Notes: generated by a model from the letters alone, not told the origin. Shown: positions 2 through 24,204, counted from the stretch's first letter. The stretch: 55,405 nt of DNA from an uncultured Thermoplasmata archaeon (GCA_965371185.1 CBDUXN010000002.1:1-55405); one strand, 5' to 3'. A program made the numbers and translations.

Positions 2-367
2 ACATATCCCCCCCTTGCAGAGAATATTATGTTCTCTATCTTTGCCCATATTAGTTATCAGGATACGTTACCTCTTACAGTTCTGGAAGCAATGGCATCA
101 GGTCTGCCAATCGTTGCGTCACGCATTGGCGAGGCACCTCAGATCATTCCTGGAGACGTGGGTTTTGTCACAAGCTTTGAGGAAGGGGATATTTCCAAGG
201 CGCTATCAAGATTATTGGGTTCAAATGATTTGAGGGCAAATCTTGGGAAAGGTGCAAGGGAGAAGGCGGAAAAAGAATTCTCATGGCCTCGAGTTGCTGA
301 GGAATATTTGACAGCATATCGTGATCTGCTCTCATCAAATGCAATGGAAAAGAGGACAAAATCATGA
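2..367 (+). CDS. Glycosyltransferase family 4 (GT-B fold), C-terminal fragment; 5' part lies upstream of the window
   Basis: Frame is open from nt 2. Translation ..FAHISYQDTLPLTVLEAMASGLPIVASRIGEAPQIIPGDVGF.. matches the C-terminal nucleotide-sugar-binding half of GT4 enzymes. TGA 365-367 overlaps the next ATG (ATGA). Confidence 0.75.
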   Translation, partial: TYPPLAENIMFSIFAHISYQDTLPLTVLEAMASGLPIVASRIGEAPQIIPGDVGFVTSFEEGDISKALSRLLGSNDLRANLGKGAREKAEKEFSWPRVAEEYLTAYRDLLSSNAMEKRTKS

Positions 368-1653
368 AAAAAATCGTGGTTGTTGGTGCCGGGGTTACAG
401 GGCTTTACTCTTCACTAGAACTGCTAAGAAGAGGCCACAAGGTCGTGTTGATTGAAGCAAGATCAAAAGTTGGCGGGATGGCACAAAGTATTAAGGATAA
501 AGGTTTCATCTTCGATGTTGGCTCCCACGTAATCCATACCAATAACCAGAAATATAAGGGCTTTATAATGGATTTACTAGGCGATGACCTGCTTGTAAAA
601 AATATTACAGCCAAGTCCTATTTTGACGGCAAATTTCACAACTTTCCGCCGATTATAAGGGACATCTTCGAGTTTCCGCCTGGTAAAGCTCTTAAAATCT
701 TTTTTGCCTTATGTGCGGGTTATATTAACCGTTATAGGAAGAAAAAACCATCGTTTGAGGAGCAAATGAAATTTCTAGCAGGTAATGACTTTTATAAAAC
801 ATATTTTGAAGGCTACACCGCAAAGTTCTGGGGCATTTCACCAAAAAATCTTTCCTCCGAATGGGTGCCCAGGCGAGTAATACCAAGATTCGCAGGAAGA
901 TCAGCCTTAGCAAATGAATGGCAAGCTTATCCAAAGCACGGAGGCATAGAAACCATCCCATTACGAATGGCAAGAATGATAGAGGAAAGAGGCGGAGTAA
1001 TTCGTGTGGATACGAGGTTAAAATCTATTGTAGAGAAAGATGGGAGAGTTGATAAGGTCGTCACGGAAACCGAAAATGGGACGGAAAATATGACCTGTGA
1101 TGCTGTAATATCGACGATACCTTTGCCTCTCCTTTTCGAGATACTTGGGAAAAAATTCGATCTAAAATATCGCTCCATGATTTTCGTGTTTCTCAAACTA
1201 AAAGGTTCCGATATCCTACCTGACATCACGATATGTTTCTTTCCCTCAAGCGAATTACCTTTTACCAGGCTATATGAGATGCTAAAATACAGTCCTCACA
1301 CCTGCCCAAAGGGCTATACCTCCTTAGGTGTTGAGATGCCGTGTTTCTTCCAGGATGAGGTGTGGAACAAGGGGGAGGATGATGTTACCGAGGAAGTGAT
1401 TAAATCTTTGGAGAATGAAAACATCGTAAAAATGGACAATTTAGTAGGGCATTTTATACATAAGGAACAATACGCATACCCAATACCAACGATAGACTAC
1501 TATCAGAAAATTGAAAAATTGCGCAGTTCCATCAGATTATCAAATCTCCATCTCGCTGGAAGAATGGGATACTTTCAATATCTGGATATGTGCGACGCTA
1601 TGGAGAGCGGTGAGAGGGCTGTTAATGCACTTGAACCCTCGTCTCAAAAATAG
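364..1653 (+). CDS. FAD/NAD(P)-binding oxidoreductase (amine-oxidase / UDP-galactopyranose-mutase-like fold)
   Basis: 429-aa ORF. N-terminal dinucleotide-binding motif KIVVVGAGVTGLYSSLELLRRGHKVVLIEARSKVGG. ATGA overlap with the upstream GT gene. Substrate not inferable. Confidence 0.7.
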   Translation: MKKIVVVGAGVTGLYSSLELLRRGHKVVLIEARSKVGGMAQSIKDKGFIFDVGSHVIHTNNQKYKGFIMDLLGDDLLVKNITAKSYFDGKFHNFPPIIRDIFEFPPGKALKIFFALCAGYINRYRKKKPSFEEQMKFLAGNDFYKTYFEGYTAKFWGISPKNLSSEWVPRRVIPRFAGRSALANEWQAYPKHGGIETIPLRMARMIEERGGVIRVDTRLKSIVEKDGRVDKVVTETENGTENMTCDAVISTIPLPLLFEILGKKFDLKYRSMIFVFLKLKGSDILPDITICFFPSSELPFTRLYEMLKYSPHTCPKGYTSLGVEMPCFFQDEVWNKGEDDVTEEVIKSLENENIVKMDNLVGHFIHKEQYAYPIPTIDYYQKIEKLRSSIRLSNLHLAGRMGYFQYLDMCDAMESGERAVNALEPSSQK

Positions 1654-1774
1654 AGCTTTTGAATGATATCACCCATTGCTGCATAAAAATCTTAATTTCG
1701 ATTTCATGATTGTCAATTGTTGGCCTATTATCTCGACACAATATTTATAAACAGAGTATTTACTACACGAAAAT

Positions 1775-2881
1775 ATGAAAATCTGTTTCGTGACTCCTTA
1801 TTCCCCAAAGATGGTTGGAGGGGTTGGCAGGCTTGTCCTTGATATATACAAAGGCCTTCGCAAAAGAAATATCGATTGTATTATCGTCACAAAAAAGATT
1901 GAAAAAGACTTGGATGTGGAGGAAAAACTTATAGAAATACCCCTGATAAATATAAGAATTATAGGCTCAACGATATTCTACTTAAAGTTGATTAAATTAC
2001 TAATCAAATATAGAAGGGAAATAGATGTACTGAATCTGCAGACCCCGTTCACAACTAGCGTAATTTCTGGGATCGTTGGGAAAATACTAGGGGTACCCGT
2101 AGTAACCACAATTCATGGTGCTCTCCCAGATTTTTCAAGAGAGAGAGATGTGTACCATATTAAACTTGTAGAGAAATTGGCTATAGCAATTTCTGATGCG
2201 GTGGTTTCTGTAGATAAAAGGGGCGTGATAGATTACAAACTTCAACATGCTGTTATTATCGAGAATGGTATAGATACTGATAAATATCAATTTGATGAAT
2301 CTCTTAGAAAAAAATTGCGAGCTAAGCTTGGAATAGATGACAAATTCATCCTATTGTTTCTTGGCAGATGGGTTTCTCAAAAGGGTATATATGAGCTCCT
2401 TGAAGCTTTGAAAAGTTTAAATCAAGAGGGTAATAATGTCGTATTGATTTTGATTGGATCATGCGATAATGACGAAATATTGAAAAAGATTAATGAAGAA
2501 GACTTAAAGAATTTTGTCATTCCTATTGGGATAGTGGAAAATACGTTAGAATTTTTTTGTGCATCTGATATTTTCGTCCTGCCTTCATATGCCGAAGGCC
2601 TACCAATTGCAATGTTAGAGGCTATGGCCTGCGGCCTTCCTGTGGTTGTAAGTGCTGTTGGTGGGATCCCATATGTTGTCGAGAATTTTAAAGATGGTAT
2701 TCTCGTTAAACCTCAAGATTCGAAAGACTTGATAGATAAGATCAATTGGTGCCTAGCCAATCCTGAGGAATTAAAGAAAATAGGCGAAAATGCGAAGAAA
2801 AAAATAAGAGAAAAGTACAGTCTAGATCGAATGACCGACGAATATATCAAAATATTCAAGAAAGTGACAAGGAAGGGTTAA
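1775..2881 (+). CDS. Glycosyltransferase family 4
   Basis: 368-aa ORF. C-terminal ..DIFVLPSYAEGLPIAMLEAMACGLPVVVSAVGGIPYVVE.. is the GT4 signature region. TATA-like ATTTATAA lies about 30 nt upstream of the ATG. Confidence 0.8.
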   Translation: MKICFVTPYSPKMVGGVGRLVLDIYKGLRKRNIDCIIVTKKIEKDLDVEEKLIEIPLINIRIIGSTIFYLKLIKLLIKYRREIDVLNLQTPFTTSVISGIVGKILGVPVVTTIHGALPDFSRERDVYHIKLVEKLAIAISDAVVSVDKRGVIDYKLQHAVIIENGIDTDKYQFDESLRKKLRAKLGIDDKFILLFLGRWVSQKGIYELLEALKSLNQEGNNVVLILIGSCDNDEILKKINEEDLKNFVIPIGIVENTLEFFCASDIFVLPSYAEGLPIAMLEAMACGLPVVVSAVGGIPYVVENFKDGILVKPQDSKDLIDKINWCLANPEELKKIGENAKKKIREKYSLDRMTDEYIKIFKKVTRKG

Positions 2882-3732
2882 AGTTCGTTCGATCTATTCT
2901 TAACCTCCTCTAAAGTTGTGAACTCGAAATTCCTGTCAATATGTCCAAGTAAAGACGTTAAAGGGTTTAGGTCTGATGAGCAGATATTATAAACCCAAGA
3001 CTTGAGGTTCGGATGATATTCTTTGATATCTACAAGTTCCCAGGGGTGTATAAGGAAAGTCACATACTCGGATTCAACTTCATTTATGGCAGCAATAGTT
3101 TTCTTTAAACCTGCATAATTCAAATACCCCATGCCGATAGGAGCCCCCTTAAAGTGAGGATTTTCTGTTAGCGGTATTTCAAGAACTGAAGACTCCCCTT
3201 TTCTAGTTATATCTTTTAGTGATGGGTAATATGGCGCTCTTGGAGCGTTCCTATGGTCGAATATTGGGAATATTTTCCATCTCTTAAAATGTCTGCCTGG
3301 CAATACCGACGAATCAATAACATAATTCAATTGCTCTAGCGCTTTTATCGTATTTCTATTGACACTAAAATTTGGTGTACGAAACATCGTAGTTATTGAA
3401 CCAAGAATTTTCTCTATTTCTTTAGTGGCTTCGGATATGTCCCTGAGCTGTTTTTCAAAGCTCATATTACAATAGAATTGAGGGGTATGATCGTATCCAT
3501 GACAACCTATCCTATGCCCTTGATCTGCAATTTTTTTCATTAATTCCGAATACCGTTTGCAAACATCAGCAGTGATAAAAAAATCAATAGTAATTCCATA
3601 ATCGTCCAGCAAACCAAGGAATGGAGGGAGACCTTTTTCTACCCCTATATAGCTGTTTTTAAGATACTGCGTCATGTCTGGCTCGACATCCATTGTAAGC
3701 AACACTTTCTTTTCCATGTTATTTATCCCCAT
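2878..3732 (-). CDS. Polysaccharide deacetylase (carbohydrate esterase family 4-like)
   Basis: 284-aa ORF. Motifs LLTMDVEPD and GHRIGCHGYDHT resemble the CE4 metal/catalytic motifs. Alternative ATG at 3717 (MEKKVLL). Confidence 0.75.
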   Translation of the reverse strand: MGINNMEKKVLLTMDVEPDMTQYLKNSYIGVEKGLPPFLGLLDDYGITIDFFITADVCKRYSELMKKIADQGHRIGCHGYDHTPQFYCNMSFEKQLRDISEATKEIEKILGSITTMFRTPNFSVNRNTIKALEQLNYVIDSSVLPGRHFKRWKIFPIFDHRNAPRAPYYPSLKDITRKGESSVLEIPLTENPHFKGAPIGMGYLNYAGLKKTIAAINEVESEYVTFLIHPWELVDIKEYHPNLKSWVYNICSSDLNPLTSLLGHIDRNFEFTTLEEVKNRSNEL

Positions 3733-4321
3733 GGTAGATAATTTTGTGCCTTTTTATACCAAGCAACTTCAGCATTTTAATCTCTTTGACCAACTTTTTG
3801 AAACCGAACCTGGAATGAGCCCTCAATGATGAATCGTTATCTGACAGAATACCGACATAAACTTTCTTGTATCCCTTACTTTTACAATACCCGAAGATTT
3901 CGTGGAGAATTTGCTGTTGAATTCGTTTGCCTCTCTCCTCCTCGAACACCAATTCATCATAAATCCAAATGCTTTGTTCATCTGCATCCACTTTGTAATA
4001 AACTTCTGGGAAATAGTACGAGATTCCCCTCACCCATGCATAACCGCATATTCTATCGTCCTTTTTTGCGACAAAGCAAATGTCCCCGTTATTAAGTCGT
4101 TCTAATATCACTGCCTTATGTATGGGTCTCTTGCCTCGCATAAGTGTGTCTAAACCGGCATCACTGACCTGAGATATCGCTACATTGGTTTTATATTCGA
4201 TTATAGCTGGTGTGTCATTAACATCCCTCTCGAATATAAGCATGTGTGCACGCTCAAATATGAGCCTTTTAATAAACCTCAATATCCGTTTACATGTTAG
4301 CTTTTCACCGCGAACCCTCAT
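3719..4321 (-). CDS. GNAT-family N-acetyltransferase
   Basis: 200-aa ORF. ..EEERGKRIQQQILHEIFGYCKSKGYKKVYVGILSDNDSSLRAHSRFGFK resembles the acetyl-CoA-binding core (R/Q-x-x-G-x-G/A-like). Abuts the upstream gene with zero gap. Confidence 0.65.
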   Translation of the reverse strand: MRVRGEKLTCKRILRFIKRLIFERAHMLIFERDVNDTPAIIEYKTNVAISQVSDAGLDTLMRGKRPIHKAVILERLNNGDICFVAKKDDRICGYAWVRGISYYFPEVYYKVDADEQSIWIYDELVFEEERGKRIQQQILHEIFGYCKSKGYKKVYVGILSDNDSSLRAHSRFGFKKLVKEIKMLKLLGIKRHKIIYHGDK

Positions 4322-5377
4322 CTATTGTCTCCTTCGAGTAATTCTGTTAAAAGTCCCTCTTACACCATGCTTTTTGAAATATCCTATCCCTAAAATAAAG
4401 GTGTTCAATACGACAGGAGGTAAGATTTTCATATACGTGTCAAAAGAATGCATCTTTCCTCCCCATCGCTCCTTAAATCGCCGCAAGCTATCGTGGTCAG
4501 GTGAGGTTTTGCCAAAATCCACCTCCATCCTTCTTTCCTTTGCTTTCTCTATAAGGGTGTAATAAAGTAGATGGTTTGGATTGAATTTAAGATAACTTGG
4601 ATCTGAGCAGTTATCAAATATTTGGATCCTAGTATTATACATGAATGCCATAAGACCTGCTATGCAAACGCCATTGTATCTTGCTAACAAGATATCGATA
4701 TTCTTAGAAGGGATTGTAGGGAGCATATCAAAGAATGTATCATTGAAAGGCTCCGAGCCGTGCTTTCTTTTGGTCATCACATGCAACCTAATGTACTCCT
4801 CCATGGCCTTGCTATTTGAGAGGGTTTGCTCAACGGCTAACCCCTCCTTTAACGCCTTCCTCACAGCATTGCGAGTTTTTTTGTGAAATATGCTCAGCGT
4901 GTCCTCCACATCGTAAAAATCGGTTAGTACATATGTCAGGTGCCCTGCAATCTTTTTAAAAGATCCTTCAACCAAAAAATTATCTAGTGTTTTATTAGTA
5001 TAATATCCCCGAACATATGCTGCTGGTACACCTTCCTCTTTACCGATCTTTGTAATCTTTCTGAAAAGGACCTCAAACGCCGCTTTTACTCGCAAAATAT
5101 CGGCAGCAAACTTTTGATTTACACATGCCCCCCCATAATCTGCGATGTATGGAGAATGAAGTGCATTTTCTGATAAGAACAAAGGCATAGCCAGCACAGG
5201 CTCCTCTTTATCCCACAAAATTAAATGATAAGGTTTCAAATTGTAGGCATTTTCGATGATCTTCAACCAGTGAGATGTATGAAAAAATGTGCTTAGATTT
5301 GAGGAAGATATAACACTATCCCATTCCCTGCTATGTTTGTGTATGTTTGTATGCTGTATCTCCAAATGCCTTTCCAT
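4322..5377 (-). CDS. FemAB-like / BioF2-like (Acetyltransf_6) acyl- or aminoacyl-transferase
   Basis: 351-aa two-lobed GNAT-like ORF. Segments FHTSHWLKIIENAY, FHKKTRNAVRKALKEGL and NPNHLLYYTLIEKAKERRMEVDFGKTSPDHDSLRRFKERWGG resemble FemA/FemB/FemX-type transferases. Called from motif memory only. Confidence 0.55.
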   Translation of the reverse strand: MERHLEIQHTNIHKHSREWDSVISSSNLSTFFHTSHWLKIIENAYNLKPYHLILWDKEEPVLAMPLFLSENALHSPYIADYGGACVNQKFAADILRVKAAFEVLFRKITKIGKEEGVPAAYVRGYYTNKTLDNFLVEGSFKKIAGHLTYVLTDFYDVEDTLSIFHKKTRNAVRKALKEGLAVEQTLSNSKAMEEYIRLHVMTKRKHGSEPFNDTFFDMLPTIPSKNIDILLARYNGVCIAGLMAFMYNTRIQIFDNCSDPSYLKFNPNHLLYYTLIEKAKERRMEVDFGKTSPDHDSLRRFKERWGGKMHSFDTYMKILPPVVLNTFILGIGYFKKHGVRGTFNRITRRRQ

Positions 5378-5667
5378 CTTTACTCGCCTCTGCTACAGAC
5401 CCATAAAATTTCATCCACAATCTTCGACCAAGTTAAGCTATTTTCAACGGATATTTTCGCTCTCTCTCCGAGCATTTCCATCCTTCTTCTCTTTGGTATA
5501 TGTAAATGGTCTATATAGGCGGAAATTCCACAGGCTCTGTGAAAGTAGTATGGTGTGAGAATGAATATTTTTTATAAAATCACCTTAACCTTAAATTGGT
5601 TAACATGATATATACGTTTTTGTTTATTTTGATTATATTACCAAGTTATTCCGCTAAAAATTGCATA

Positions 5668-7326
5668 TTATATGTTTTCAAAATAATATACATCGATGGC
5701 ACCATTATCATATATCTTATATCTCCCAACTTCTACACTCTTAAAAAATCTAGAAGTATAATATCTTTCGTATGCATAAACTTGGTGGTGTATGGATTTT
5801 AAAGAGAGTGAATATTGAACTTTATATTTCAAAACTAAATTGGTTGGAACGTCGTCGTAGGCATTCTGATGGATAACTATCCAATCTTTTTCAACATTCC
5901 CGGCGCCTTTAGCCTTATACAATGCATCTGACCCGACACTGATTTTTTGGATGGAAATGGGAATGATTTGAAAATCATCCTCATGAAGATAGCCGTAAAT
6001 GAGCTGTTCCGGTCCGGTTGCATGCAAAGTTCCACCGCCGATCGGTAAACACGGTTTCCCTGATATCGCACCAACCCTTGCAGCTAATAACCCATCGTTT
6101 GTAATAAAAGTGTTATCCGTCATATACTTCATGTAAAGAGCGGCATCGTAGGTTGTTTCAGACATACTATCTTCTTCTACACCCCAAGTATCGAACATGA
6201 AATCGACAAATCCGACCGAAGCTATGAGGCTGGCTACCAGCAATGTCAGGACGATAACCTTTCTTTTCTTAATTAACTTGTAAATATGAGAGAATGAAAA
6301 CCCAGCCAGGAGGGAAAAAAATACCAGGAAAAAGTAGGATGAATAGGTTCTCATGCCTATGGTTGGGAATAAAAAGATCAGTGATACTATCAAGAACACA
6401 TCGTAAAGACCTTTATTTTTCTTCCAAATCAGGTACAAGGATCCAATCAACCCAAACACCAGCATTATGCCGATCCTGCCGATTAAGCTCACGAACAGGT
6501 TGATCATTAGGATTGGGGGGGAACTACCGGAAAACAACCTTGTTTCTTCATAAATAATAAGTCCCTGTGCCCCTTGAAGTGGATTATTTCCCGAGAAAAG
6601 CATTCCAAGTAAAGCAATAAATATTGCCACGATGATTGAAGGCCCTAAAACTCTTGAGCTCAATTGCATTTTCCTAGATTTGGCAAAAATAGGAACCAGC
6701 TGCTTATAGAAGGCGAACAGTAGGACGCTTGTGAGATAGGCTATCAAAATAAAAATCATAAAAACGCCCAGCCTATGGCTCGTTCCCACGGTCAGCAGCG
6801 TGATTATGAAAAGGACATTCATCCTATTGACGGCAAATCCTCTCGTTTTGAGAAGGAATAGTATACAGGCCGGTGCAAGTGACATAAATAAATTTCTTGT
6901 GGAGGCTGTCCAAAAGGTCATCTTTATGAATATGGGTGAGAAGGTGAAAGCCAATGCCACCACAAAACAGAACAGGTCGTCGTTCTTGATTTCCCTGGCC
7001 AGAAAGTATGTACTGAATACGCCTATTAAACCGAGAACGATTGAAATCGCCAATATGGAATGCTCCACGTCCACGCCGCAGCTTGTCGATACTCCTGCAG
7101 CTAGAAAAGGATACGCGCTTGGATACGATAGCGGGTAAAGTCCGATGTACGATAAGGGATGGAGAATCCATGGTGCATAGTGGTTTTGAGTGATAGAATT
7201 CCCAAGAATATGAATAACGAAGGAATCGACACCTATTTCATGCTGGACTATAGGGTATCTGATTGCCACGTTTAAAGCGAATAAAAACGAAATCAATAGG
7301 AAATTTACCCTTCTTGAGAATTTCAT
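5668..7326 (-). CDS. Polytopic membrane protein with C-terminal soluble domain; GT-C-fold glycosyltransferase or polymerase-like
   Basis: 552-aa ORF. About 12-13 hydrophobic helices in the first ~385 aa, with an acidic first loop (VQHEIGVDSF), followed by a ~165-aa hydrophilic domain. No WWDYG OST motif seen. Confidence 0.5.
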   Translation of the reverse strand: MKFSRRVNFLLISFLFALNVAIRYPIVQHEIGVDSFVIHILGNSITQNHYAPWILHPLSYIGLYPLSYPSAYPFLAAGVSTSCGVDVEHSILAISIVLGLIGVFSTYFLAREIKNDDLFCFVVALAFTFSPIFIKMTFWTASTRNLFMSLAPACILFLLKTRGFAVNRMNVLFIITLLTVGTSHRLGVFMIFILIAYLTSVLLFAFYKQLVPIFAKSRKMQLSSRVLGPSIIVAIFIALLGMLFSGNNPLQGAQGLIIYEETRLFSGSSPPILMINLFVSLIGRIGIMLVFGLIGSLYLIWKKNKGLYDVFLIVSLIFLFPTIGMRTYSSYFFLVFFSLLAGFSFSHIYKLIKKRKVIVLTLLVASLIASVGFVDFMFDTWGVEEDSMSETTYDAALYMKYMTDNTFITNDGLLAARVGAISGKPCLPIGGGTLHATGPEQLIYGYLHEDDFQIIPISIQKISVGSDALYKAKGAGNVEKDWIVIHQNAYDDVPTNLVLKYKVQYSLSLKSIHHQVYAYERYYTSRFFKSVEVGRYKIYDNGAIDVYYFENI

Positions 7327-7405
7327 TAATAACCCTATACAACAGGCTGCTTATATATTTTTTAGGGAAAAATCCGGCTTAATAAACCCGGTCGTAGGGG
7401 AACAA

Positions 7406-8155
7406 TTAAAGTATTTCGAGCTTTTTTTTCAATATTTTTTTTAAAAGTGGATTCATAACAAAATACTGCTTTCCATCATCTAAGTTCTGTTTAACCGACC
7501 GATGTTTATTTTCCTTAATGTCCTTTACGACCTTAACAAAAGCGGCGCTGGTGTTCTCTTGACATTTTAATCTTATACTTTCAAGCGTGTCCCCTTTGTC
7601 GATGCTGAATTTTTGAGTGTACAAAATATCTCCCAAATCCACACCCGGCGAGACGAAGTGTATAGAAATGCCGGTTTCCTCTCCCAATAGGATCGACCAT
7701 TCTGTTACATTCATCCCCCTGATCTTCGGTAGAATCGCGTAATGGCCGTTCAAAGTTCCGATTTTCGATGTGTTTAAAATTTCCTTTCGAATTATTCCAG
7801 TTCCCCACAACAGGATCAAATCAGGTTCGATCTTCTCCAGAATTCCTCTACAACGTTTACCATTATGACTTTTCACATAATAAACTGGAATATTCAATTC
7901 CTTTGCCACGGACTTGAGTTTTCTGGAAAACATCTTACTACCCACTTCCCCATTCCCTCCGGGAGTCCTTAATTCCTTCATCATCCCTCTGAACCCGTAT
8001 CTCTTCAACCCTACCTTCATCGAGGCAAAAATGCCTACATTGCTGTAAATAATTGCCGTGGGTTTCATACCGGAGGCCGTTAAATTCCTCAATGCCTTCT
8101 CTTTCCAAGCCAGTTTGTCGAATCTTGGATATTGGGAGAAAATCACGATATTCAT
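7406..8155 (-). CDS. Formyltransferase-family protein (Fmt/PurN-like N-terminal domain), candidate sugar N-formyltransferase
   Basis: Motif LNGHYAILPKIRGMN matches N-x-H-x-S/A-x-LP-x-x-RG, and SPGVDLGDI carries the catalytic Asp region. I place the start at MNIVIF (ATG 8155), which directly abuts the upstream stop at 8152-8154. The longer track ORF (to 8263) would overlap that gene. Confidence 0.65.
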   Translation of the reverse strand: MNIVIFSQYPRFDKLAWKEKALRNLTASGMKPTAIIYSNVGIFASMKVGLKRYGFRGMMKELRTPGGNGEVGSKMFSRKLKSVAKELNIPVYYVKSHNGKRCRGILEKIEPDLILLWGTGIIRKEILNTSKIGTLNGHYAILPKIRGMNVTEWSILLGEETGISIHFVSPGVDLGDILYTQKFSIDKGDTLESIRLKCQENTSAAFVKVVKDIKENKHRSVKQNLDDGKQYFVMNPLLKKILKKKLEIL

Positions 8156-9336
8156 AGCAGTTTTTCCTCCAGGTCTTTGGTAACAGATATCCTCTGCATA
8201 AAAGCGTCGGCGAAAAATTTTGTAGCCCAGTTTGGATACTGTAAAGGCGCGTACTTTCCCCAAATGGGATGGGAACCCTTCACGGCACCTTTTATTTCCT
8301 TAAACCTTGAATTTATTGGCTGTAAATGACCTAGTAGGTCGGTTGCGTTCAATGCACCGTTTAAATACCGTATGTCATCCGTCAATTCATAGATCTTGAA
8401 CCAGATAATGCTGAGCTGAGCTATTCCTGTCAGGCATTCGGTTTTTACTATTGGTGCCCATTTTTCGTTATGGGAAGTTGGCATGAACTTCTTCGTTTCG
8501 AATTTCCTCAATAATACTTCGTTCGTTTTTAAAACTGCATCCAAATGTTTTTCATCGTGAAGAATGTAGTACCCCTCCAATAGTCCTCTCAGTGTGTACG
8601 CGATGCCGTGGGTGTTACATGTACGCTGGTCGTTCTCGAACATACAGTTTTCAAAATAACCGTTTTCCTTTTGCTGGGATAACACCCAGTTGTTGATGTC
8701 CTGGGCGGTATCGAGATATTTTCGTTCCTCTGTCAATGAGTACAATTCCAAAATCGCCCAGGCAACTCTCGAGTGATATGCATGCGGAATGTTTTTATAG
8801 CAGTGTTGCAGCCAAAGTCCCTCCTCTTTTCTTATCTTCACAAGAAAAGCTCCGGCTTTGATCAAGGCTTCTAGATATTTTTTATCGCTGGTTTTCTTGT
8901 AGGCTGCCACCCATCCCAACATGACCATGCCTGTATTAAAAACCGTCGAAGGGTTCTTATCTCTTAATAAAACGGAACCCTGATTTATCCCCCCATCCTC
9001 TTTTTGTATATCGATAAGCCAGTCGCACATCATGATAGCCTCACGGAAATATTCATCGTTCGATGAAAACTCTGAGTAGTCGAAGAACGTTTTTGCCATA
9101 TATCCCGTGGTTTCAGGGTATGCTGGTTGCCATCCCTTAGGATAGGAGAATGCTGCGGAGGAACCCTTATGTTCTGTAATTTTATGGGTTAATCGCAGCC
9201 AGTTCATGGCCAGCTCGAGATGCTTCTCCACAGGCAGCTCCAATTCAGGAAAAGGTAGGTAATTTCTCTTCAAATTGGCCAAAGGGTCCGTAAATATTTG
9301 GTAGGATAATCTTAATGTTCTTGTAATTGGGTTCAT
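8152..9336 (-). CDS. Alpha/alpha-toroid-like protein (squalene-cyclase / AGE / LanC-like superfamily), function unknown
   Basis: 394-aa soluble ORF with a repeated helical-hairpin feel (..DWLIDIQKEDGGINQG.., ..NWVLSQQKENGYFEN.., ..THGIAYTLRGLLEGY..). The superfamily call is by impression only. Confidence 0.35.
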   Translation of the reverse strand: MNPITRTLRLSYQIFTDPLANLKRNYLPFPELELPVEKHLELAMNWLRLTHKITEHKGSSAAFSYPKGWQPAYPETTGYMAKTFFDYSEFSSNDEYFREAIMMCDWLIDIQKEDGGINQGSVLLRDKNPSTVFNTGMVMLGWVAAYKKTSDKKYLEALIKAGAFLVKIRKEEGLWLQHCYKNIPHAYHSRVAWAILELYSLTEERKYLDTAQDINNWVLSQQKENGYFENCMFENDQRTCNTHGIAYTLRGLLEGYYILHDEKHLDAVLKTNEVLLRKFETKKFMPTSHNEKWAPIVKTECLTGIAQLSIIWFKIYELTDDIRYLNGALNATDLLGHLQPINSRFKEIKGAVKGSHPIWGKYAPLQYPNWATKFFADAFMQRISVTKDLEEKLL

Positions 9337-10569: not shown

Positions 10570-10670
10570 GTAGATAAGGTCAGTATATTAAAAACTATCT
10601 CTGGTTGGTGGTTGTGCGCTGTTCAATGATACTTGCTTTGATGTTTGTATCAACCTTCCCGTTTATCAAT

Positions 10671-10728
10671 CCCACCCATCGTGTTCCTCCACCATCCATT
10701 ACCCACCACCAATGTCCCTTCCACACGC
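10671..10728. repeat. C-rich intergenic tract (G-rich on the sense strand of the downstream minus-strand gene), loose copy
   Basis: cccacccatcgtgttcctccaccatccattacccaccaccaatgtcccttccacacgc lies 100-160 nt upstream of the GT4 start at 10569. Confidence 0.3.
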
Positions 10729-10802
10729 TCATCATCCTCGTGCAATACCATGAAAATCAAAAGTCTTATCTATACCAAACCAATACATGCTCTGTTGGGA
10801 AT

Positions 10803-12059
10803 ATGGGCAAGAAAATCTGCATCCTGGGTCTTGGTTACATAGGACTACCTACAGCCGGCATGCTTGCCACGTACGGGTATGATGTTATAGGCGTGGATGT
10901 AGATGAGAAAATCGTAAAAAAAATGGTCAACGGGGAGGTTCACATAAGGGAAGCAGGACTTGAAACGCTGGTACAGGCTGCATTGAAGTCAAGACGACTT
11001 CAGGTTCGAACAGCGCCTCAAAAGGCGGATGTATTCATAGTATGCGTCCCAACACCCATCGATGATGAGACAAAGAAGCCAGATCTCCGCTTTGTTGAAT
11101 CTGCTGTTGAGAGCGTCCTTCCTCATCTCCAAAAGGGCAACTTGATAATAGTGGAATCTACGGTGCCTCCGTCGGCTAATAAAAACCTCGTTATCCCGAT
11201 TCTGGAAAAAAGTGGATTGGAAGTTGGAAAGGAGCTGTTTGTGGCATACTGCCCAGAGAGGGTTTTACCGGGCAAGATACTCACGGAGCTTGTGAACAAT
11301 GACAGGATAATCGGGGGCGTGGATAAGAAATCAGCTGAGATGGCCAAGGAGCTCTACAGATCCTTTGTGGAGGGTGACATTCACCTGACAGATATCGAAA
11401 CTGCTGAAATGGCGAAGTTGATTGAAAACACTTTCAGAGATGTGAACATAGCCCTAGCCAACGAATATTTGAAGGTATCAGAGCGTGTGGGCGTAGATGT
11501 TTGGAAGGCCATTGAACTGGCGAATAAACATCCGAGGGTCAACATTCATTATCCAGGTCCCGGGGTCGGTGGCCACTGTATTGCAGTTGATCCATGGTTC
11601 ATTGTGAAGGCGGATGAAGAGGACACAATTCTCATCAGAACCGCCAGAAAGACCAACGACGGGATGCCGAACTTCATCGTTAATGTCATGGAAAAGGAAT
11701 TGGAAGGGATTGAGAACCCGACGGTAACGGTATTCGGGGTTGCATATAAAGGGAATGTAGGTGATACACGTCAATCACCAGCCCGACAAATCATTTCCCT
11801 TCTGATGGAAAGGGGATACGAGGTCAGAGCTTATGATCCCTTGGTAGAGGATTTCCATTACGAGCTTTTACCCTTGGAGAAGGCTGTGGACAATTCTGAC
11901 TGTATAGTAGTTCTGGCAGATCATAGAATTTTCAACAATTTGGACCTAGAAGTAATTTTTTCGCTGATGAGGAATAAAAGGGTCATCGATACCAAGAACT
12001 GCCTCTCCCCAAATTGGGAAAAAGCAGGTTTCAGTGTCAGGATTTTAGGAAATGGATAA
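10803..12059 (+). CDS. wecC: UDP-N-acetyl-D-mannosamine (UDP-sugar) 6-dehydrogenase family
   Basis: Start taken at ATG 10803 (MGKKICILGLGYIGLPTAGMLA, the NAD-binding GxGxxG). The catalytic-Cys region GPGVGGHCIAVDPWF is present. Immediately followed by wecB. The track's TTG extension from 10605 runs through a C-rich intergenic tract. Confidence 0.8.
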   Translation: MGKKICILGLGYIGLPTAGMLATYGYDVIGVDVDEKIVKKMVNGEVHIREAGLETLVQAALKSRRLQVRTAPQKADVFIVCVPTPIDDETKKPDLRFVESAVESVLPHLQKGNLIIVESTVPPSANKNLVIPILEKSGLEVGKELFVAYCPERVLPGKILTELVNNDRIIGGVDKKSAEMAKELYRSFVEGDIHLTDIETAEMAKLIENTFRDVNIALANEYLKVSERVGVDVWKAIELANKHPRVNIHYPGPGVGGHCIAVDPWFIVKADEEDTILIRTARKTNDGMPNFIVNVMEKELEGIENPTVTVFGVAYKGNVGDTRQSPARQIISLLMERGYEVRAYDPLVEDFHYELLPLEKAVDNSDCIVVLADHRIFNNLDLEVIFSLMRNKRVIDTKNCLSPNWEKAGFSVRILGNG

Positions 12060-12061
12060 TA

Positions 12062-13153
12062 ATGAGGATTTGCATTGTTGCGGGTACCCGCCCGGAAATA
12101 ATCAAAATGTCACCGATTATCAGGGAATGTAAGGAGAGAGGCATTGATTACCTGATGATTCATACGAACCAGCATTATTCCTACAATATGGACAAGATAT
12201 TCTTTGAGGAGCTGGCCCTCCAAGAACCTGAATACAATTTGGAGATAGGCTCCGGAACCCACGGCGCTCAAACCGGGAAGATGATCATCGAACTGGAAAA
12301 AAGGCTGATGAGGGAAAAACCTGATGTCGTTTTGGTAGAGGGAGATACGAACACGGTTTTGGCAGGAGCCCTCACAGCCTCGAGATGTCGAATAGATGTT
12401 GGGCATGTGGAGGCAGGTCTGAGAAGCTTTGATAGAACCATGCCCGAAGAAATCAACAGAATGTTGACGGATCATCTATCCTCGTACCTGTTCGCTCCCA
12501 CCCCTATCTCAAAGAGCAACTTGATGGGCGAGGGCATCAGAGAGGATTGGGTATATGTCGTAGGAAACACGATCGTGGACGCCACGATACATCACCTGGA
12601 GCTTGCCAGGAGAAAATCGAATATTTTAGAAGATTTGCAGTTGACGGAAAAAGGCTATTTTCTGCTCACGATCCATCGCCAGGAGAATGTTGACGATGAG
12701 GAGAGGCTGAACAAGATAATCACCTCCCTAAGGGAAATCGATAAAAAGTACGATATACCGATCATCTACCCGATACACCCAAGATCAGAAAAGATGATGA
12801 AAAAATTCGGCTTGAAAACGCAATTGGAGGGGATCAACAACATAAAATTGATTGAGCCAGTGGGTTATATGGATTTTCTTGTCCTCGAGAGGAACGCGAA
12901 GCTTGTACTTACGGACTCGGGTGGCGTTCAAGAAGAAGCTTGCATATTGAATGTTCCCTGCGTGACGTTGAGATACAATACCGAGAGACCTGAGACCGTG
13001 GAAGTAGGCAAAAATATGGTTGTTGGGGTCGAAAGCGAAAATGTGTTGAAGGGTGTGGAGGAGATGTTGAAAAGGGATTTGAGCGACAAAAATCCATTTG
13101 GAGACGGAAGAACCGGAAAGAAAATAGTGGATATTATGATTGAATCCGTTTAG
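12062..13153 (+). CDS. wecB: UDP-N-acetylglucosamine 2-epimerase (non-hydrolysing type)
   Basis: MRICIVAGTRPEIIKMSPII.., ..VLVEGDTNTVLAGALTA.., HVEAGLRSFDRTMPEEINR and DSGGVQEEA are classic WecB/MnaA motifs. The ATG lies 3 nt after the wecC stop. Confidence 0.9.
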   Translation: MRICIVAGTRPEIIKMSPIIRECKERGIDYLMIHTNQHYSYNMDKIFFEELALQEPEYNLEIGSGTHGAQTGKMIIELEKRLMREKPDVVLVEGDTNTVLAGALTASRCRIDVGHVEAGLRSFDRTMPEEINRMLTDHLSSYLFAPTPISKSNLMGEGIREDWVYVVGNTIVDATIHHLELARRKSNILEDLQLTEKGYFLLTIHRQENVDDEERLNKIITSLREIDKKYDIPIIYPIHPRSEKMMKKFGLKTQLEGINNIKLIEPVGYMDFLVLERNAKLVLTDSGGVQEEACILNVPCVTLRYNTERPETVEVGKNMVVGVESENVLKGVEEMLKRDLSDKNPFGDGRTGKKIVDIMIESV

Positions 13154-13176: not shown

Positions 13177-14403
13177 TTAATCGTAGAGGCCTAATAGCCT
13201 TTTCTTCATTACTTCCCAGGTGTGCTTTTTGTAGATCTCTCTGGCCTTACCCACCATTTTTTCTGTTTCAACTTTATTTTGGTAGATATACTTTATCTTC
13301 TCAGCCAGATCGCTCTCATTTTCTGGTTCGTAGTAGACTGCGGCATAATCACCAAGTAATGCATACAATCCCTTCAGACGGCAGGCTATGATAGGTTTGC
13401 CCAAGGCTATGTATTCAAACACCTTGTTCGGCATAGCGAATTCGGTCATGGGGTTCTTAACGTAGGAAATTATTCCATAATGCGACTGGTCTAAATAACC
13501 TGCCACATCCTCTCCCCTCAATTCACCGCCAAAATACACTTTGTCTCCAAGGCCAAAGTTATTTGCAAGTGTTTTTAGTTCATCCTTGTACCCTACGCCA
13601 CCGAGCCCATAGGTATGTCCAAAGAGTATAAAAAAGATCTCTGGAATGTCCTTTTGAACTTTGGCCATGGCCTTTATTATGACCTCGATGTTCCGTTCAG
13701 GATTTATTCCCCCAACATATACGGTAATAAATTTTCCATCCAATCCCAGCTGAGCCTTGAAATCCTTCAGATCCCTTTTCACAAAAATTTTTTCGTCAGG
13801 GGTGTTCATTATTACGATGATCTTATTGGACGGGACACCTCTGTCCACAATAACTTCCTTTCTCACATCGTTAACAGTAATAACATGATCAGCGAAAGTG
13901 GTGCTGATCTTCTCCAGCACACATACTATTTTCACCGCGGGGGAGCTCATGTCTTTGTTAAACCGCGCGGCGAAAATCTCGGGCATGACCTCATGCAGGT
14001 CTAAAATGATCTTCTTTCCCTTCAGCTTCAGCATTATGGCCACAAAAACGAGGAAATCGGGCAAAGAATGCACATGAACGACATCGTATTTTCTTTTGGA
14101 GTCCAATCTGTTCAATGTGATAAAGACCTGGAGAAAAAACAGGGTATAGTGGTAAAGATATCGAAGGTAACCCCCCCTTTTATGGGTCAGGGAAACCCTG
14201 TGAATATTCACACCGTTGAAGGAACTTGACCTATCTTCGTCCTCCCCTCTCAAGCAGATAACGTCCACCGAATACCCCTCCTCGATCAAGGCCTCAGCAG
14301 CCCTTCTAACCCTTGGATCGAAGGGATAAAACGAATAAACCGGCATGCAGACCGTCTTCTTTTTCAGATTCTTTTCCATGATCTCATTCAACCCCCGCAA
14401 CAT
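13177..14403 (-). CDS. Glycosyltransferase family 4
   Basis: 408-aa ORF with a GT-B layout; the C-terminal half carries ..MPNKVFEYIALGKPIIACRLKG... Possible later start MEKNLKK (14379), which removes the overlap with the upstream deacetylase gene. Confidence 0.7.
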   Translation of the reverse strand: MLRGLNEIMEKNLKKKTVCMPVYSFYPFDPRVRRAAEALIEEGYSVDVICLRGEDEDRSSSFNGVNIHRVSLTHKRGGYLRYLYHYTLFFLQVFITLNRLDSKRKYDVVHVHSLPDFLVFVAIMLKLKGKKIILDLHEVMPEIFAARFNKDMSSPAVKIVCVLEKISTTFADHVITVNDVRKEVIVDRGVPSNKIIVIMNTPDEKIFVKRDLKDFKAQLGLDGKFITVYVGGINPERNIEVIIKAMAKVQKDIPEIFFILFGHTYGLGGVGYKDELKTLANNFGLGDKVYFGGELRGEDVAGYLDQSHYGIISYVKNPMTEFAMPNKVFEYIALGKPIIACRLKGLYALLGDYAAVYYEPENESDLAEKIKYIYQNKVETEKMVGKAREIYKKHTWEVMKKRLLGLYD

Positions 14404-15232
14404 CCCTATACTGGATGAACTCGACCTTCTTGCTAACGTAATCTATAAACGTCTCCAGGCCTTCAAGCGCCTTTTTTCCTCTATTTTTCTTATGCCTTCT
14501 TGGCAACCCATCCCAAAGTGTGATTTCATTATCGCCTAACACCTCCCATGGGTGAAGGTAGAAAACCACGGGGTCAAAAAAATGAGAGGAGATATTGAAT
14601 AAATTACACACCCTCTTGGCGCCGAATGATCTAATTGCAGACAGGGTGAGAGGAACTATGAAGGCGGAGATAGGTACCTCCAATACACTGGAATCGCCTT
14701 TTTTGAAGATATTTTGCCTTGAAGGATGATAGGGCCGTGTGGGAGCAAAGAACGCCTTCACATTGTTTCCCACTCCAAGACCGAAATCAAAACGTAGGGC
14801 TGTGACGGAACTGTCGCAAATATATCCTTGATTTTCCAAGGCCTTTATCGTATCGCTGCTCGCTTTGGCATAGGGAGCTCGAAAGATCTTTACTTCATCG
14901 GTAATTGCACTCTTTATGGCATTGGTGGCATTCTCGATCTTTTTAACCTGCTCATCCAGATCTATATCAATGAAATTCTCTGCCATGTCGATACCATGGG
15001 AATACCCATGGCAACCGATTTCATGTCCGTTATTGTGGATTTCTTTTACCGGGGATTTGTATTCCTCAGCGAACTTACCGGCAATAAAAAACGTGGCTTT
15101 GACCCCCTTCCCCTCCAGAAGGTCGAGGATTCTCTCTATACCAGCTTCGCTCCCTGGGAAGTGGTCCACATCGACAGTCAATATCATCCTTTTTTCCATA
15201 CTCAACCGTTCCCTTCTTTTCTCTATTGTCAT
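14384..15232 (-). CDS. Polysaccharide deacetylase (CE4-like), second copy
   Basis: ILTVDVDH and GHEIGCHGYSHG motifs parallel the 2878-3732 gene. Possible start at MEKRMIL. Confidence 0.75.
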   Translation of the reverse strand: MTIEKRRERLSMEKRMILTVDVDHFPGSEAGIERILDLLEGKGVKATFFIAGKFAEEYKSPVKEIHNNGHEIGCHGYSHGIDMAENFIDIDLDEQVKKIENATNAIKSAITDEVKIFRAPYAKASSDTIKALENQGYICDSSVTALRFDFGLGVGNNVKAFFAPTRPYHPSRQNIFKKGDSSVLEVPISAFIVPLTLSAIRSFGAKRVCNLFNISSHFFDPVVFYLHPWEVLGDNEITLWDGLPRRHKKNRGKKALEGLETFIDYVSKKVEFIQYRDVAGVE

Positions 15233-15250
15233 TGTATTTCAACTTACAGT

Positions 15251-15280
15251 TCGCCGCCTTGCCCCCACCGCCCGCCCTCA
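15251..15280. repeat. C-rich intergenic motif copy
   Basis: tcgccgccttgcccccaccgcccgccctca lies 20-50 nt upstream of the deacetylase start (15232, minus strand). Confidence 0.35.
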
Positions 15281-15357
15281 TTTCAGATCAACGGAGTGTC
15301 AACCCTTCGAGTTCACATGGCCCTATTGTTATGAACATTGATTTAAGTATCGATTCA

Positions 15358-16434
15358 TTATACCACATCCGAATCCCCCCAAGTGATGAGCCAGTTTTGG
15401 GGATTTTTTACGGCATCGAGATCGATGTCCTTGGAGATTGGATAGATTATAAAAGGTTGGGGTTTTGGGTTAAGTTTTTGAGGGCTTGGCATAAACCCGC
15501 ACTTTCTCAGCACCCCATTATATTCGCCCCATTTTGGCATCATGCACGCTATCGCATCAACCTCCTTTTTTTTCAGATATTCAACAGCTTTTAGAACAAG
15601 TGCGTGGGCAACGTTCTCATAGTTAGGCAGTGCCAGGATATCCACTATGAGTCCATTCCTCAGTCCAAATAGCTCCATCACCCTAACAACCACAAAACCC
15701 AATATGCGGTCATCTTTCTCCGCAACGAATACCTGATAATGTTTCTCAGGGCACTCAGCATATCTCCAATTCAGATACCTGCTATCACGCTGTAAGATTA
15801 CATTATGGGGTGAACATGCCTTCTCCCAAAACCTGTCAAATCTCCTGTCGAACCTCTCTATGGTTTTTATAACGATATCGCCTTCTATATTCGCCTTCCT
15901 AGACCTATAAACCACTTTAAATAGAAATCTACCAAACAGTTGGCTAAAGAGGCCGAGAACCCTATTGGCAACCAGTTTTTTTGAGACGTTCTTAAAGTTA
16001 ACTGGCCTCACCATCACATCCGGTGTGAACAGCTCTATGCACCCCATCTTCCTGTGACCAGGTAATGCCTTTTCATTGGGAAACCCAATCACGATGCTAA
16101 CCCCTTCTTCTTCTAAATCGGATAACAGCCTTTTTCCAAGGGCAACGAATATGCCACGGCGGGCATAATCCGGATGGGTCATACCGTCAACCTCCAGGGA
16201 GGAGAGGGCCTTCGTTTGTCCAATTTTAATACTGCGGTGAAGGGCAGCAAGATGGGCCATAAGATTCTCTTCTTCATCCTCTGCGATCAAAGCCTTGAAA
16301 CCATCAGGGTTCTTTTTGAATTCCCAATTCCACTGCACCGTTGTCCTTGTCTTGTTGAATATGAAATTGAAGAGAGGCACTATCCTTTGCTCATCGCCGT
16401 CCTCGTAGTCCCTTATCGACCAATTTTTTCCCAT
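15358..16434 (-). CDS. GNAT-family acetyltransferase, two-domain (about 358 aa)
   Basis: The N-terminal GNAT core is ..MTHPDYARRGIFVALGKRLLSDLEEEG... A second GNAT-like lobe lies in the C-terminal half. Confidence 0.6.
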   Translation of the reverse strand: MGKNWSIRDYEDGDEQRIVPLFNFIFNKTRTTVQWNWEFKKNPDGFKALIAEDEEENLMAHLAALHRSIKIGQTKALSSLEVDGMTHPDYARRGIFVALGKRLLSDLEEEGVSIVIGFPNEKALPGHRKMGCIELFTPDVMVRPVNFKNVSKKLVANRVLGLFSQLFGRFLFKVVYRSRKANIEGDIVIKTIERFDRRFDRFWEKACSPHNVILQRDSRYLNWRYAECPEKHYQVFVAEKDDRILGFVVVRVMELFGLRNGLIVDILALPNYENVAHALVLKAVEYLKKKEVDAIACMMPKWGEYNGVLRKCGFMPSPQKLNPKPQPFIIYPISKDIDLDAVKNPQNWLITWGDSDVV

Positions 16435-17810: not shown

Positions 17811-18794
17811 ATGCTCAATGTTGGGGTAATAGGCGTAGGCATGATGGGGCAGAACCATGCAAGGGTTTACTCTGAGATAGCGAATTTGATCGGCATCGCT
17901 GATTCGGACGAAAATGCGGTTAGTGAGATATCAAAAAGGTTCAATGTAAAAGGTTACCTCAAATTTCATGAATTGCTCAAGAACAAAGACCTGGACGCGG
18001 TGACGGTTTCCACCCCTACTTCCACCCATTTTGAAGTGGCGAACGCGGCAATTGAGGCTGGAAAACATGTTTTAATCGAAAAACCCATGTGCGGTGAGTT
18101 GGAGCCCGCGAGAACCTTGACAGCGAACGCAAAGAAGAAAGGCGTGGTTCTGGCTGTGGGGTACATCGAGAGACATAACCCAGTAGTGGGATTTACCAGG
18201 AACCTGCTGGAAAAAAACCAATTTGGAGAGGTTATATCAATATCCTCAAGGAGGGTCAGCTCATTCCCCTCCCGAGTCAAGGACGTGGGTGTTATTTTGG
18301 ATCTCGGTATTCATGACATCGATGTGATAAGGTATCTCATGGGCACAAGTATCAAGAGCGTTTATGCTCTGGCAGGCAACTCGGGAGACACGGAGTTTGA
18401 GGATCATGCCAACATCCTTCTTGAGTTTGAAAACGGTGTATTCGCTTTTATAGAGGTGAATTGGCTCACGCCCATGAAGGTTAGAAAAGTTGCACTAACA
18501 TGTTCAAAGAACTTTGTGGAGATGGACTACATCAACCAGTTCCTTCATATTTCCTCCTCGATCATGAAAAGGATCGATACCGGTAACCTTTACAGGATCC
18601 CGCAGGAGTACGAGGAAAGGAAAATCGAACTGGAGAGGAGAGAACCTCTTAGAAATGAACTTACCGATTTTTTAAGTGCGATTGAGGACGGTGGCTCGCC
18701 TTTGATACCTGGAGAAGAAGGTGTCGAGACCTTGGAGATCGCGCATGCCGCCATGCTTTCCGCTAAGAATGGGATGAAGGTTGAAATTGGATGA
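17811..18794 (+). CDS. Gfo/Idh/MocA-family NAD(P)-dependent sugar oxidoreductase (WbpB-like candidate)
   Basis: MLNVGVIGVGMMGQNHARVY.. Rossmann N-terminus and ..AGKHVLIEKPM.. motif; 327 aa. Confidence 0.8.
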   Translation: MLNVGVIGVGMMGQNHARVYSEIANLIGIADSDENAVSEISKRFNVKGYLKFHELLKNKDLDAVTVSTPTSTHFEVANAAIEAGKHVLIEKPMCGELEPARTLTANAKKKGVVLAVGYIERHNPVVGFTRNLLEKNQFGEVISISSRRVSSFPSRVKDVGVILDLGIHDIDVIRYLMGTSIKSVYALAGNSGDTEFEDHANILLEFENGVFAFIEVNWLTPMKVRKVALTCSKNFVEMDYINQFLHISSSIMKRIDTGNLYRIPQEYEERKIELERREPLRNELTDFLSAIEDGGSPLIPGEEGVETLEIAHAAMLSAKNGMKVEIG

Positions 18795-24191: not shown

Positions 24192-24204
24192 GTTTCCAGC
24201 CCCG

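Follow-up and report, generated by a model that had tools for sequence, protein, structure and literature searches.

Three adjacent genes of an uncultured Thermoplasmata archaeon encode a Fem-family (VimA/FemX-like) double-GNAT transferase (P0001), a small GNAT acetyltransferase, and a CE4 (NodB-type) de-N-acetylase (P0003). They lie on the minus strand of a 55,405-nt stretch of DNA (GCA_965371185.1, CBDUXN010000002.1:1-55405; hereafter, the window), which is a whole contig from an assembly of 295 contigs and starts inside a gene. On balance, we favor the reading that the trio acts as one cytoplasmic module for tailoring a surface glycan, in which the CE4 enzyme would remove an N-acetyl group and the Fem enzyme would then attach an amino acid to the exposed amine. 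We advance only tentatively the fuller proposal that the archaeon makes a surface glycan bearing an N-(N-acetyl-aminoacyl) amino sugar through the deacetylase, a tRNA-dependent Fem enzyme, and a capping GNAT. An earlier note on this DNA had suggested amino-acid decoration of a de-N-acetylated sugar, and this is still the best-supported reading. The host is an archaeon, with RadA (PF08423, E = 1.4e-92) and an archaeal-type PurP (DUF1246 plus DUF1297) encoded on the same contig.

The Fem-family transferase

P0001 belongs to the Fem/Acetyltransf_6 family. It exceeds the cut-offs of PF13480 (Acetyltransf_6; 45.3 bits, cut-off 22), PF02388 (FemAB; 36.7 bits, cut-off 24), and PF04339 (FemAB_like; 30.1 bits, cut-off 27). 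The best NCBIfam model is TIGR03019, at 89.1 bits and below the curated cut-off of 260.35; all 123 aligned relatives of P0001 match it as well. Among 1.84 billion representative proteins, relatives fall into 4,289 clusters at E <= 0.001 and into 5 at E <= 1e-30, and P0001 therefore represents a small subclade within a large family. The profile of the 123 relatives matches FmhB (6snr, 6e-34) and FemX (about 1e-26, residues 4-307) over their full length, and it also matches FemA and the aminoacyl-tRNA-dependent peptide synthases 9wqw/9wqy (3e-20). The family call of the earlier note is thereby confirmed, and the protein is more than a generic GNAT.

The predicted structure agrees with this placement. 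For the AlphaFold2 model of P0001 (predicted local distance difference test score, 95.4; predicted template modeling score, 0.91), the ten best PDB matches in Foldseek are all Fem-type aminoacyl-tRNA transferases. FemX ranks first, with template modeling (TM) scores of 0.70/0.73, which answers the comparison with FemX and FemA that the earlier note had recommended. Sba18/Sbb17 with bound streptothrisamine give TM scores of 0.67/0.82, whereas acetyl-CoA-dependent tandem GNATs such as VipF reach only about 0.45.

Conserved residues add to the evidence on the donor. K302 is the only invariant column of the aligned family (Lys in 123 of 123 relatives), and position 301 is Phe or Tyr in 122 of the 123. 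The pair F301-K302 aligns with F304-K305 of FemX, where Lys305 is catalytic and Phe304, a residue shared by every Fem transferase, stacks against tRNA C75 (PMC9723616, PMC12945691). Neither P0001 nor, within the stretch corresponding to its residues 250-290, any of the 123 relatives has motif A for coenzyme A (CoA), [QR]xxGx[GA]. The last 32 residues include 7 Lys/Arg and no acidic residue, forming a basic C-terminal stretch. From homology, fold, and catalytic residues together, we infer with fair confidence that the donor is an aminoacyl-tRNA, and P0001 is predicted to be an aminoacyl-tRNA-dependent N-aminoacyl transferase acting on a sugar amine. The acceptor must be another amine than in FemX because the archaeon has no murein; the acceptor-binding Lys36 of FemX aligns with Ile41 of P0001. 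A role in peptidoglycan or pseudomurein cross-bridges was considered and rejected, given a context of glycan genes only and no Mur genes.

Alternatively, the Fem-like enzyme could be an N-acyltransferase with a donor other than tRNA, such as an acyl-CoA, an acyl-acyl carrier protein, or another activated acid. It would then place a glyceroyl, lactoyl, or hydroxybutyryl group on the de-N-acetylated sugar, and the GNAT would act on a different amine. Pfam does name PF13480 an acetyltransferase (GNAT) domain, an older annotation of the bacterial protein VimA reads acetyl-CoA transferase, and Caulobacter HfsK is only a putative N-acyltransferase (PMC7468200, PMC5362036). Members of the family at glycan loci are likewise without any demonstrated donor, and the N-glycan of Methanoculleus marisnigri carries glyceric acid on 2,3-diaminoglucuronic acid (PMC11407970). 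However, the CoA motif is missing from P0001 and, in the aligned region, from every relative, and the invariant Lys with its preceding aromatic residue corresponds to the FemX residues that touch the aminoacyl-tRNA end (PMC9723616). In structure, too, P0001 resembles aminoacyl-tRNA enzymes clearly more closely than CoA-dependent tandem GNATs. Exchanging vimA between species also alters the amino acid that is added (PMC7468200). Weighing both sides, we regard a non-tRNA donor as unlikely.

The deacetylase, the small GNAT, and a proposed order of steps

P0003 contains the NodB domain (PF01522, 73.9 bits), and its best NCBIfam model is TIGR03006, the XrtA-system polysaccharide deacetylase, at 92.5 bits and below the cut-off of 276. 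The metal-binding and catalytic motif positions H78, H82, R118, P120, and H229 are invariant among six aligned CE4 sequences. CE4 orthologues occur on contigs equal in size to six clade-A Fem contigs, a match that serves as a proxy for co-occurrence.

The small GNAT is a PF00583 member (38.5 bits, cut-off 20.7). Its best matches, all weak, are ArsN1 and RimI in NCBIfam and phosphinothricin N-acetyltransferases in the PDB, which are amino-acid N-alpha-acetyltransferases. Only 5 orthologues were recovered among 5.8 billion proteins, and all 5 are on contigs equal in size to clade-A Fem contigs; by this size-matching proxy, the small GNAT is found only with the Fem subclade of P0001. No transmembrane segment is predicted in the Fem, GNAT, or CE4 protein, and the CE4 protein also lacks a signal peptide. 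Because none of the three has a transmembrane segment, they can reach aminoacyl-tRNA and acetyl-CoA in the cytoplasm.

We propose the following sequence of events. Judging by its family and motifs, the CE4 enzyme would strip the N-acetyl group from a nucleotide- or lipid-linked precursor of the N-acetylhexosamine (HexNAc) type, leaving a free amine; enzymes encoded in the same locus may make this precursor, either an N-acetylmannosaminuronic acid (ManNAcA)-type sugar or a 2,3-diacetamido uronic acid. The Fem enzyme would then move an aminoacyl group from aminoacyl-tRNA to the freed amine, comparable to the action of FemX on precursors of peptidoglycan. In the third step, the weakest of the scheme, the GNAT might transfer an acetyl group from acetyl-CoA to the alpha-amine of the residue just attached, yielding an N-(N-acetyl-aminoacyl) amino sugar. 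We offer this last assignment, drawn from sequence similarity and gene position, as a possibility that falls short of the odds we give the first two steps. Neighboring GT4 enzymes would afterwards build the modified sugar into the glycan. Donor, amino acid, and acceptor sugar are all predictions in this scheme.

Gene layout and conservation of the trio

The three minus-strand reading frames are exactly where the earlier note had placed them (Table 1). Its zero gap between the Fem and GNAT genes also holds, as the GNAT ATG directly follows the Fem stop codon TAG, with a GGAG motif about 8 nt upstream of that ATG. The 14-nt overlap it described between the GNAT and CE4 genes stands only with the first CE4 ATG. 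A start at the second ATG (3715-3717, Met6) gives a protein of 279 aa and a 1-nt spacer instead, and we consider it more likely because both the gene call in the public protein collection and the N-termini of orthologues agree with the 279-aa form. Whichever start applies, the trio is tightly packed. At its downstream end, the CE4 gene and a convergent GT4 gene overlap at their stop codons by the 4-nt TTAA. At its upstream end, the spacer contains several TATA-like runs, found by direct reading of the sequence without a promoter tool. With this stretch of 34% G+C standing between the trio and the gene upstream, the trio may be transcribed from a promoter of its own, which the spacer probably holds.

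Orthologues of the Fem, GNAT, and CE4 genes occur in the same order, with 66-79% identity, on two independent metagenome contigs (L013 and L014), and the three genes are therefore real. L013 also keeps the convergent GT4 gene (48% identity), the flavin adenine dinucleotide (FAD)-dependent oxidoreductase gene (68%), and a further GT4 gene (63%), giving a conserved neighborhood of six genes.

Table 1. Features of the window discussed in the text (UDP, uridine diphosphate; GlcNAc, N-acetylglucosamine; ManNAc, N-acetylmannosamine).
Feature	Position	Strand	Details
Fem-family (VimA/FemX-like) double-GNAT transferase gene (P0001)	4322-5377	minus	351 aa
Small GNAT acetyltransferase gene	3719-4321	minus	200 aa; PF00583
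CE4 (NodB-type) de-N-acetylase gene (P0003)	2878-3732	minus	284 aa from first ATG
AT-rich spacer upstream of Fem gene	5378-5667	minus	290 nt; GC 0.338
Convergent GT4 glycosyltransferase gene	1775-2881	plus	In VimF position; PF00534, 144 bits
FAD-dependent amine-oxidase/UDP-galactopyranose-mutase-like oxidoreductase gene	364-1653	plus	PF01593, 102.9 bits; GLF, 50 bits
Further GT4 gene, C-terminal part	2-367	plus	PF00534; cut by contig end; sixth syntenic gene
552-aa polytopic membrane protein gene plus formyltransferase-domain gene	5668-8263	minus	Just upstream of the trio
Formyltransferase-domain gene	7406-8263	minus	N-terminal extension of ~110-136 residues
UDP-ManNAc dehydrogenase-like and UDP-GlcNAc 2-epimerase genes	10605-13153	plus	
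Second CE4 gene plus tandem-GNAT gene	14384-16434	minus	Tandem GNAT, 358 aa (Acetyltransf_9 plus Acetyltransf_1)
Second CE4 gene	14384-15232	minus	282 aa
UDP-GlcNAc 2-epimerase gene, second copy	16468-17547		
UDP-GlcNAc 3-dehydrogenase-like oxidoreductase gene (WbpB-type step)	17811-18794	plus	NF040723, 324 bits (cut-off 450)
UDP-ManNAc dehydrogenase-like gene, second copy	22893-24227		

Fem-like genes at other loci

We mapped 26 loci with Fem-like genes from archaea, bacteria, and metagenomes. The genes sit in glycan clusters and commonly adjoin an enzyme that makes a free sugar amine, an arrangement that supports a sugar amine as the acceptor; homologues of P0001 are thus associated with glycan genes. 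A DegT aminotransferase gene is the neighbor in L035, L039, L041, L043, and L044, and a CE4 gene is the neighbor in the window, L013, L014, and the archaeal locus L054 (zero gap). In the bacterial locus L038, a pair of Fem-like genes has a CE4 gene about 1.6 kb upstream, and WbpB-like and DegT genes are also present.

The archaeon itself encodes a second Fem-like protein on another contig (C9; L035:9459-13675), of 359 aa and with 47.9 bits to PF13480. This gene is downstream of a divergent DegT aminotransferase gene and a dehydratase-type short-chain dehydrogenase/reductase gene and is followed by a radical-SAM/SPASM gene, with a flippase, a PMT_2-type GT-C gene, and a methyltransferase nearby. 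The locus appears to offer a second way of making an N-acylated amino sugar, one that needs no deacetylase. Two loci from bacterial metagenome-assembled genomes (L039:6348-11470 and L041:6627-8705) each have a Fem-like gene directly downstream of WbpB-like and DegT genes. Both also contain Fem-like reading frames of about 670-690 aa, twice the usual length, which suggests fused forms, and the Deltaproteobacteria genome among them has three Fem-like genes close together.

Elsewhere in the genome, contig C190 (L037:2915-4072) encodes an exosortase/archaeosortase-family protein (PF09721, 33 bits), the only match above cut-off in the genome. Its gene directly follows that of a protein of at least 905 aa and is unlinked to the window. 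We considered and rejected a role for the trio in anchoring archaeosortase substrates, given this lack of linkage; a capping GNAT would also argue against it.

The glycan island and the candidate acceptor

As the earlier note proposed, the trio forms an operon inside a glycan island. Beyond the genes in Table 1, the island encodes a PF00953 transferase for initiation, more GT4s, and sugar-nucleotide enzymes of the kind typically seen in glycan assembly. The two UDP-ManNAc dehydrogenase-like proteins score 438 and 421 bits against NF040825 (cut-off 750), and the two UDP-GlcNAc 2-epimerases score 395 and 360 bits against PF02350; together these genes would supply HexNAc uronic acids. For the oxidoreductase of the WbpB-type step, the archaeal UDP-GlcNAc 3-dehydrogenase model NF040723 is by far the best match, though below its cut-off, and the enzyme may furnish a 2,3-diamino sugar as acceptor. 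The acceptor could plausibly be a ManNAcA-type sugar or a 2,3-diacetamido uronic acid, but we name these as guesses only.

Other genes of the island invite separate comment. The FAD-dependent protein may be a mutase or may have the attached amino acid as its substrate; that it could deaminate a seryl residue oxidatively, leading towards a glyceroyl group as in the Methanoculleus glycan, is pure speculation. For the 552-aa membrane protein, neither Pfam nor NCBIfam nor the PDB gives a sequence match, and together with the formyltransferase-domain protein and the CE4 enzyme it loosely resembles ArnA/ArnD/ArnT. The tandem GNAT of the second deacetylase/acyltransferase pair has homologues in operons with Fem-like genes in related archaea (L049 and L053).

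With such a neighborhood, the three enzymes might be co-expressed and still work independently rather than sequentially on one sugar. The CE4 enzyme, for example, might work as a deformylase or deacetylase for the formyltransferase nearby, in an Arn-like manner, and the GNAT could be a plain sugar N-acetyltransferase. The formyltransferase and the polytopic protein are encoded upstream on the same strand, P0003 has a weak match to the ArnD deformylase model (25.6 bits), and the island has its second pair of CE4 and tandem-GNAT genes. Set against this are the order and tight packing kept in L013 and L014 at 66-79% identity, the exclusive association of the GNAT with one Fem subclade by the size-matching proxy, and the 290-nt AT-rich spacer that parts the trio from the upstream genes. 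At other loci, moreover, Fem-like genes are commonly partnered by enzymes that generate an amine. The CE4 protein fits TIGR03006 (92.5 bits) much better than ArnD, and this comparison weakens the Arn-like deformylase reading. Independent action of the three enzymes seems to us improbable, slightly more so than a non-tRNA donor.

A further alternative is that the trio and a GT4 enzyme make a small soluble glycoside, akin to mycothiol or bacillithiol, rather than decorating a glycan. The proposed order of steps is that of MshA/B/C/D, the GT4 protein reaches 114 bits with the BshA model and 75 bits with the MshA model, and the six-gene neighborhood is conserved as a unit. Nevertheless, those GT4 scores are far below the BshA and MshA cut-offs and generic GT4 models score higher; the neighborhood contains three GT4 genes; and the initiating transferase, additional GT4s, and sugar-nucleotide enzymes of the island point to glycan assembly. 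No inositol-, malate-, or cysteine-related genes were seen. We consider this explanation very improbable.

Weighing the proposed module

Several observations count against a module of CE4 de-N-acetylation followed by tRNA-dependent aminoacylation. Concerning the donor, P0001 is far below the TIGR03019 cut-off (89 versus 260 bits), and PF13480/TIGR03019 proteins from glycan loci, VimA included, have no biochemically shown donor. The study by Veith that describes the Vim chemistry makes no mention of aminoacyl-tRNA (PMC7468200), and no private tRNA gene was found near the Fem gene in the window or in six related loci. VimA and VimE were likened to P0001 and the CE4 protein through family models and descriptions. 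Concerning the acceptor, no WbpE-type 3-aminotransferase or WbpD-type acetyltransferase was found in the window, and the two good DegT genes of the genome are on contigs C9 and C67 and resemble 4-aminotransferases. The one archaeal glycan known to have a non-acetyl N-acyl group on a 2,3-diamino uronic acid is the N-glycan of Methanoculleus marisnigri, in which acetic and glyceric acid, not an amino acid, are attached to 2,3-diaminoglucuronic acid (PMC11407970). The role of the GNAT, finally, is read from weak similarities (21.6-35.6 bits) and gene position only.

Distribution and origin

Orthologues of the Fem and cassette CE4 genes were not found in the four congeneric genomes searched, which are 80-88% complete. 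The only CE4 matches of these congeners are 30-36% identical to the cassette CE4, and the second CE4 of the window is similarly distant (35%). The block from 364 to 7326 has a G+C content of 0.389 relative to 0.447 for the genome, and its third-position G+C is 0.34-0.45 relative to 0.50-0.60 elsewhere in the window. This places the block about 1.5 standard deviations below the genome mean, and about 7% of 3-kb genome windows are equally low or lower; low G+C is therefore weak evidence for lateral transfer and is typical of variable glycan islands. Because it was not found in the four congeners and lies in the low-G+C block, we conclude that the cassette is an accessory, strain-variable part of the glycan island that was possibly acquired by lateral transfer.

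The earlier note had described FemAB/FemX enzymes as known from bacteria and suggested a phylogeny to reveal acquisition from bacteria. Fem-like genes are not confined to bacteria: PF13480 has matches in three control archaeal genomes, and TIGR03019 has matches in 12 of 301 genomes of the phylum to which the window belongs (G000 included). When 86 Fem-like proteins are placed in a tree, the clade that includes P0001 has good support (98 in the Shimodaira-Hasegawa-like approximate likelihood ratio test), but the tree does not settle where the clade attaches and speaks neither for nor against a bacterial origin. Fem genes linked to a CE4 gene occupy three distinct positions in the tree, and the Fem-CE4 pairing therefore seems recurrent.

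Implications

Archaeal surface glycans are chemically very diverse, and few of their tailoring enzymes are known. If the proposed pathway is true, it would be the first case of glycan aminoacylation from tRNA to be shown in Archaea, and charged tRNAs would feed glycan decoration in archaea as well as bacteria. It would also be a mycothiol-like exchange of an acetyl for an N-acetyl-aminoacyl group carried out by unrelated enzymes. The model predicts an N-acetyl-aminoacyl sugar detectable by mass spectrometry, and the cassette offers a compact, soluble three-enzyme system for settling whether the donor of VimA/TIGR03019 proteins is aminoacyl-tRNA. That the cassette was not found in the four congeners would mark it as a strain-variable surface trait, of a kind that we suppose is usually tied to pressure from viruses or predators.

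Comparison with known systems

The Wbp/Vim pathway of bacteria, which makes the linking sugar of the T9SS (type IX secretion system), provides a precedent. There, the attached amino acid is the point where the linking sugar joins the secreted cargo protein. The archaeal cassette shares with this pathway a CE4 gene and a TIGR03019-like Fem gene side by side with a glycosyltransferase gene (vimF there, GT4 in the window), HexNAc uronic acid enzymes in the locus, and the same proposed chemistry of de-N-acetylation followed by amino-acid attachment. The T9SS sugar is a 2-N-seryl- (Porphyromonas gingivalis) or 2-N-glycyl- (Tannerella forsythia) 3-N-acetyl-hexuronic acid or its amide (PMC7468200). 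In the published proposal, the acetyl group at C-2 is taken off by VimE (CE4), and the amino acid is put on by VimA, a match to TIGR03019. A vimA swap between the two species changes Ser to Gly, the residue following the VimA orthologue, and vimA and vimE are adjacent and accompanied by Wbp genes in several bacteria (PMC7468200). The two systems differ in the archaeal host, in the dedicated small GNAT between Fem and CE4, which has no Vim counterpart, and in the set of Wbp-type genes, not all of which were found here. The GNAT of the window would cap the alpha-amine. If it does so, the product would serve as a terminal decoration rather than as a sugar that links to protein, the role of the T9SS sugar.

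The XrtA/PEP-CTERM systems provide the best models of both P0001 and the CE4 protein, TIGR03019 and TIGR03006, a pair from bacterial polysaccharide loci. Both archaeal scores are far below the cut-offs, however, and there is no linked exosortase or PEP-CTERM context.

Among characterized Fem enzymes, FemX of Weissella viridescens (1NE9, 4II9) and FmhB and FemA of Staphylococcus aureus (6SNR, 1LRZ) share the double-GNAT fold and the Phe-Lys pair with P0001, although identity is only about 16%; P0001 also lacks the coiled-coil insertion of FmhB and FemA (351 aa versus about 420 aa). Orf11, Sba18, and Sbb17 (9wqw-9wqy) combine the Fem fold with aminoacylation of a sugar amine from aminoacyl-tRNA. 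For Orf11, Gly-tRNA-dependent aminoacylation of the streptothrisamine amino sugar was shown in vitro (PMC12945691). These enzymes belong instead to Streptomyces secondary metabolism, are 13% identical to P0001, and have no described deacetylase partner. In Caulobacter, HfsK (Acetyltransf_6) and the deacetylase HfsH are proposed to act in a single pathway, and HfsK has a basic C-terminus as P0001 does; HfsK is nonetheless regulated by cyclic di-GMP, and the hfsK and hfsH genes are not adjacent in Caulobacter crescentus (PMC5362036).

In archaea, a 2024 review describes only two related modifications, the Methanoculleus glycan discussed above and threonine linked as an amide to the C-6 carboxyl of a uronic acid (PMC11407970). 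In the literature searched, we found no report of an N-aminoacylated amino sugar in archaea and no paper on Fem-type enzymes in archaeal glycan synthesis. The earlier note had considered the chemistry to be outside the described archaeal pathways, which agrees with this search; the chemistry is not undescribed, however, because the VimE/VimA logic has been published for bacteria (PMC7468200). The interpretation in that note is thus partly supported, being right in substance for chemistry that has a bacterial precedent.

Finally, the deacetylate-aminoacylate-N-acetylate order that we propose for the trio would parallel that of mycothiol synthesis. MshB, MshC, and MshD de-N-acetylate a GlcNAc glycoside, attach an amino acid, and N-acetylate that amino acid with a GNAT. 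The mycothiol enzymes are unrelated to the trio, comprising an LmbE-type deacetylase and an ATP-dependent ligase resembling cysteinyl-tRNA synthetase, and their product is a small soluble thiol. Relative to the bacterial chemistry already published, the new elements of the cassette are its archaeal host and the small GNAT that accompanies only this Fem subclade.

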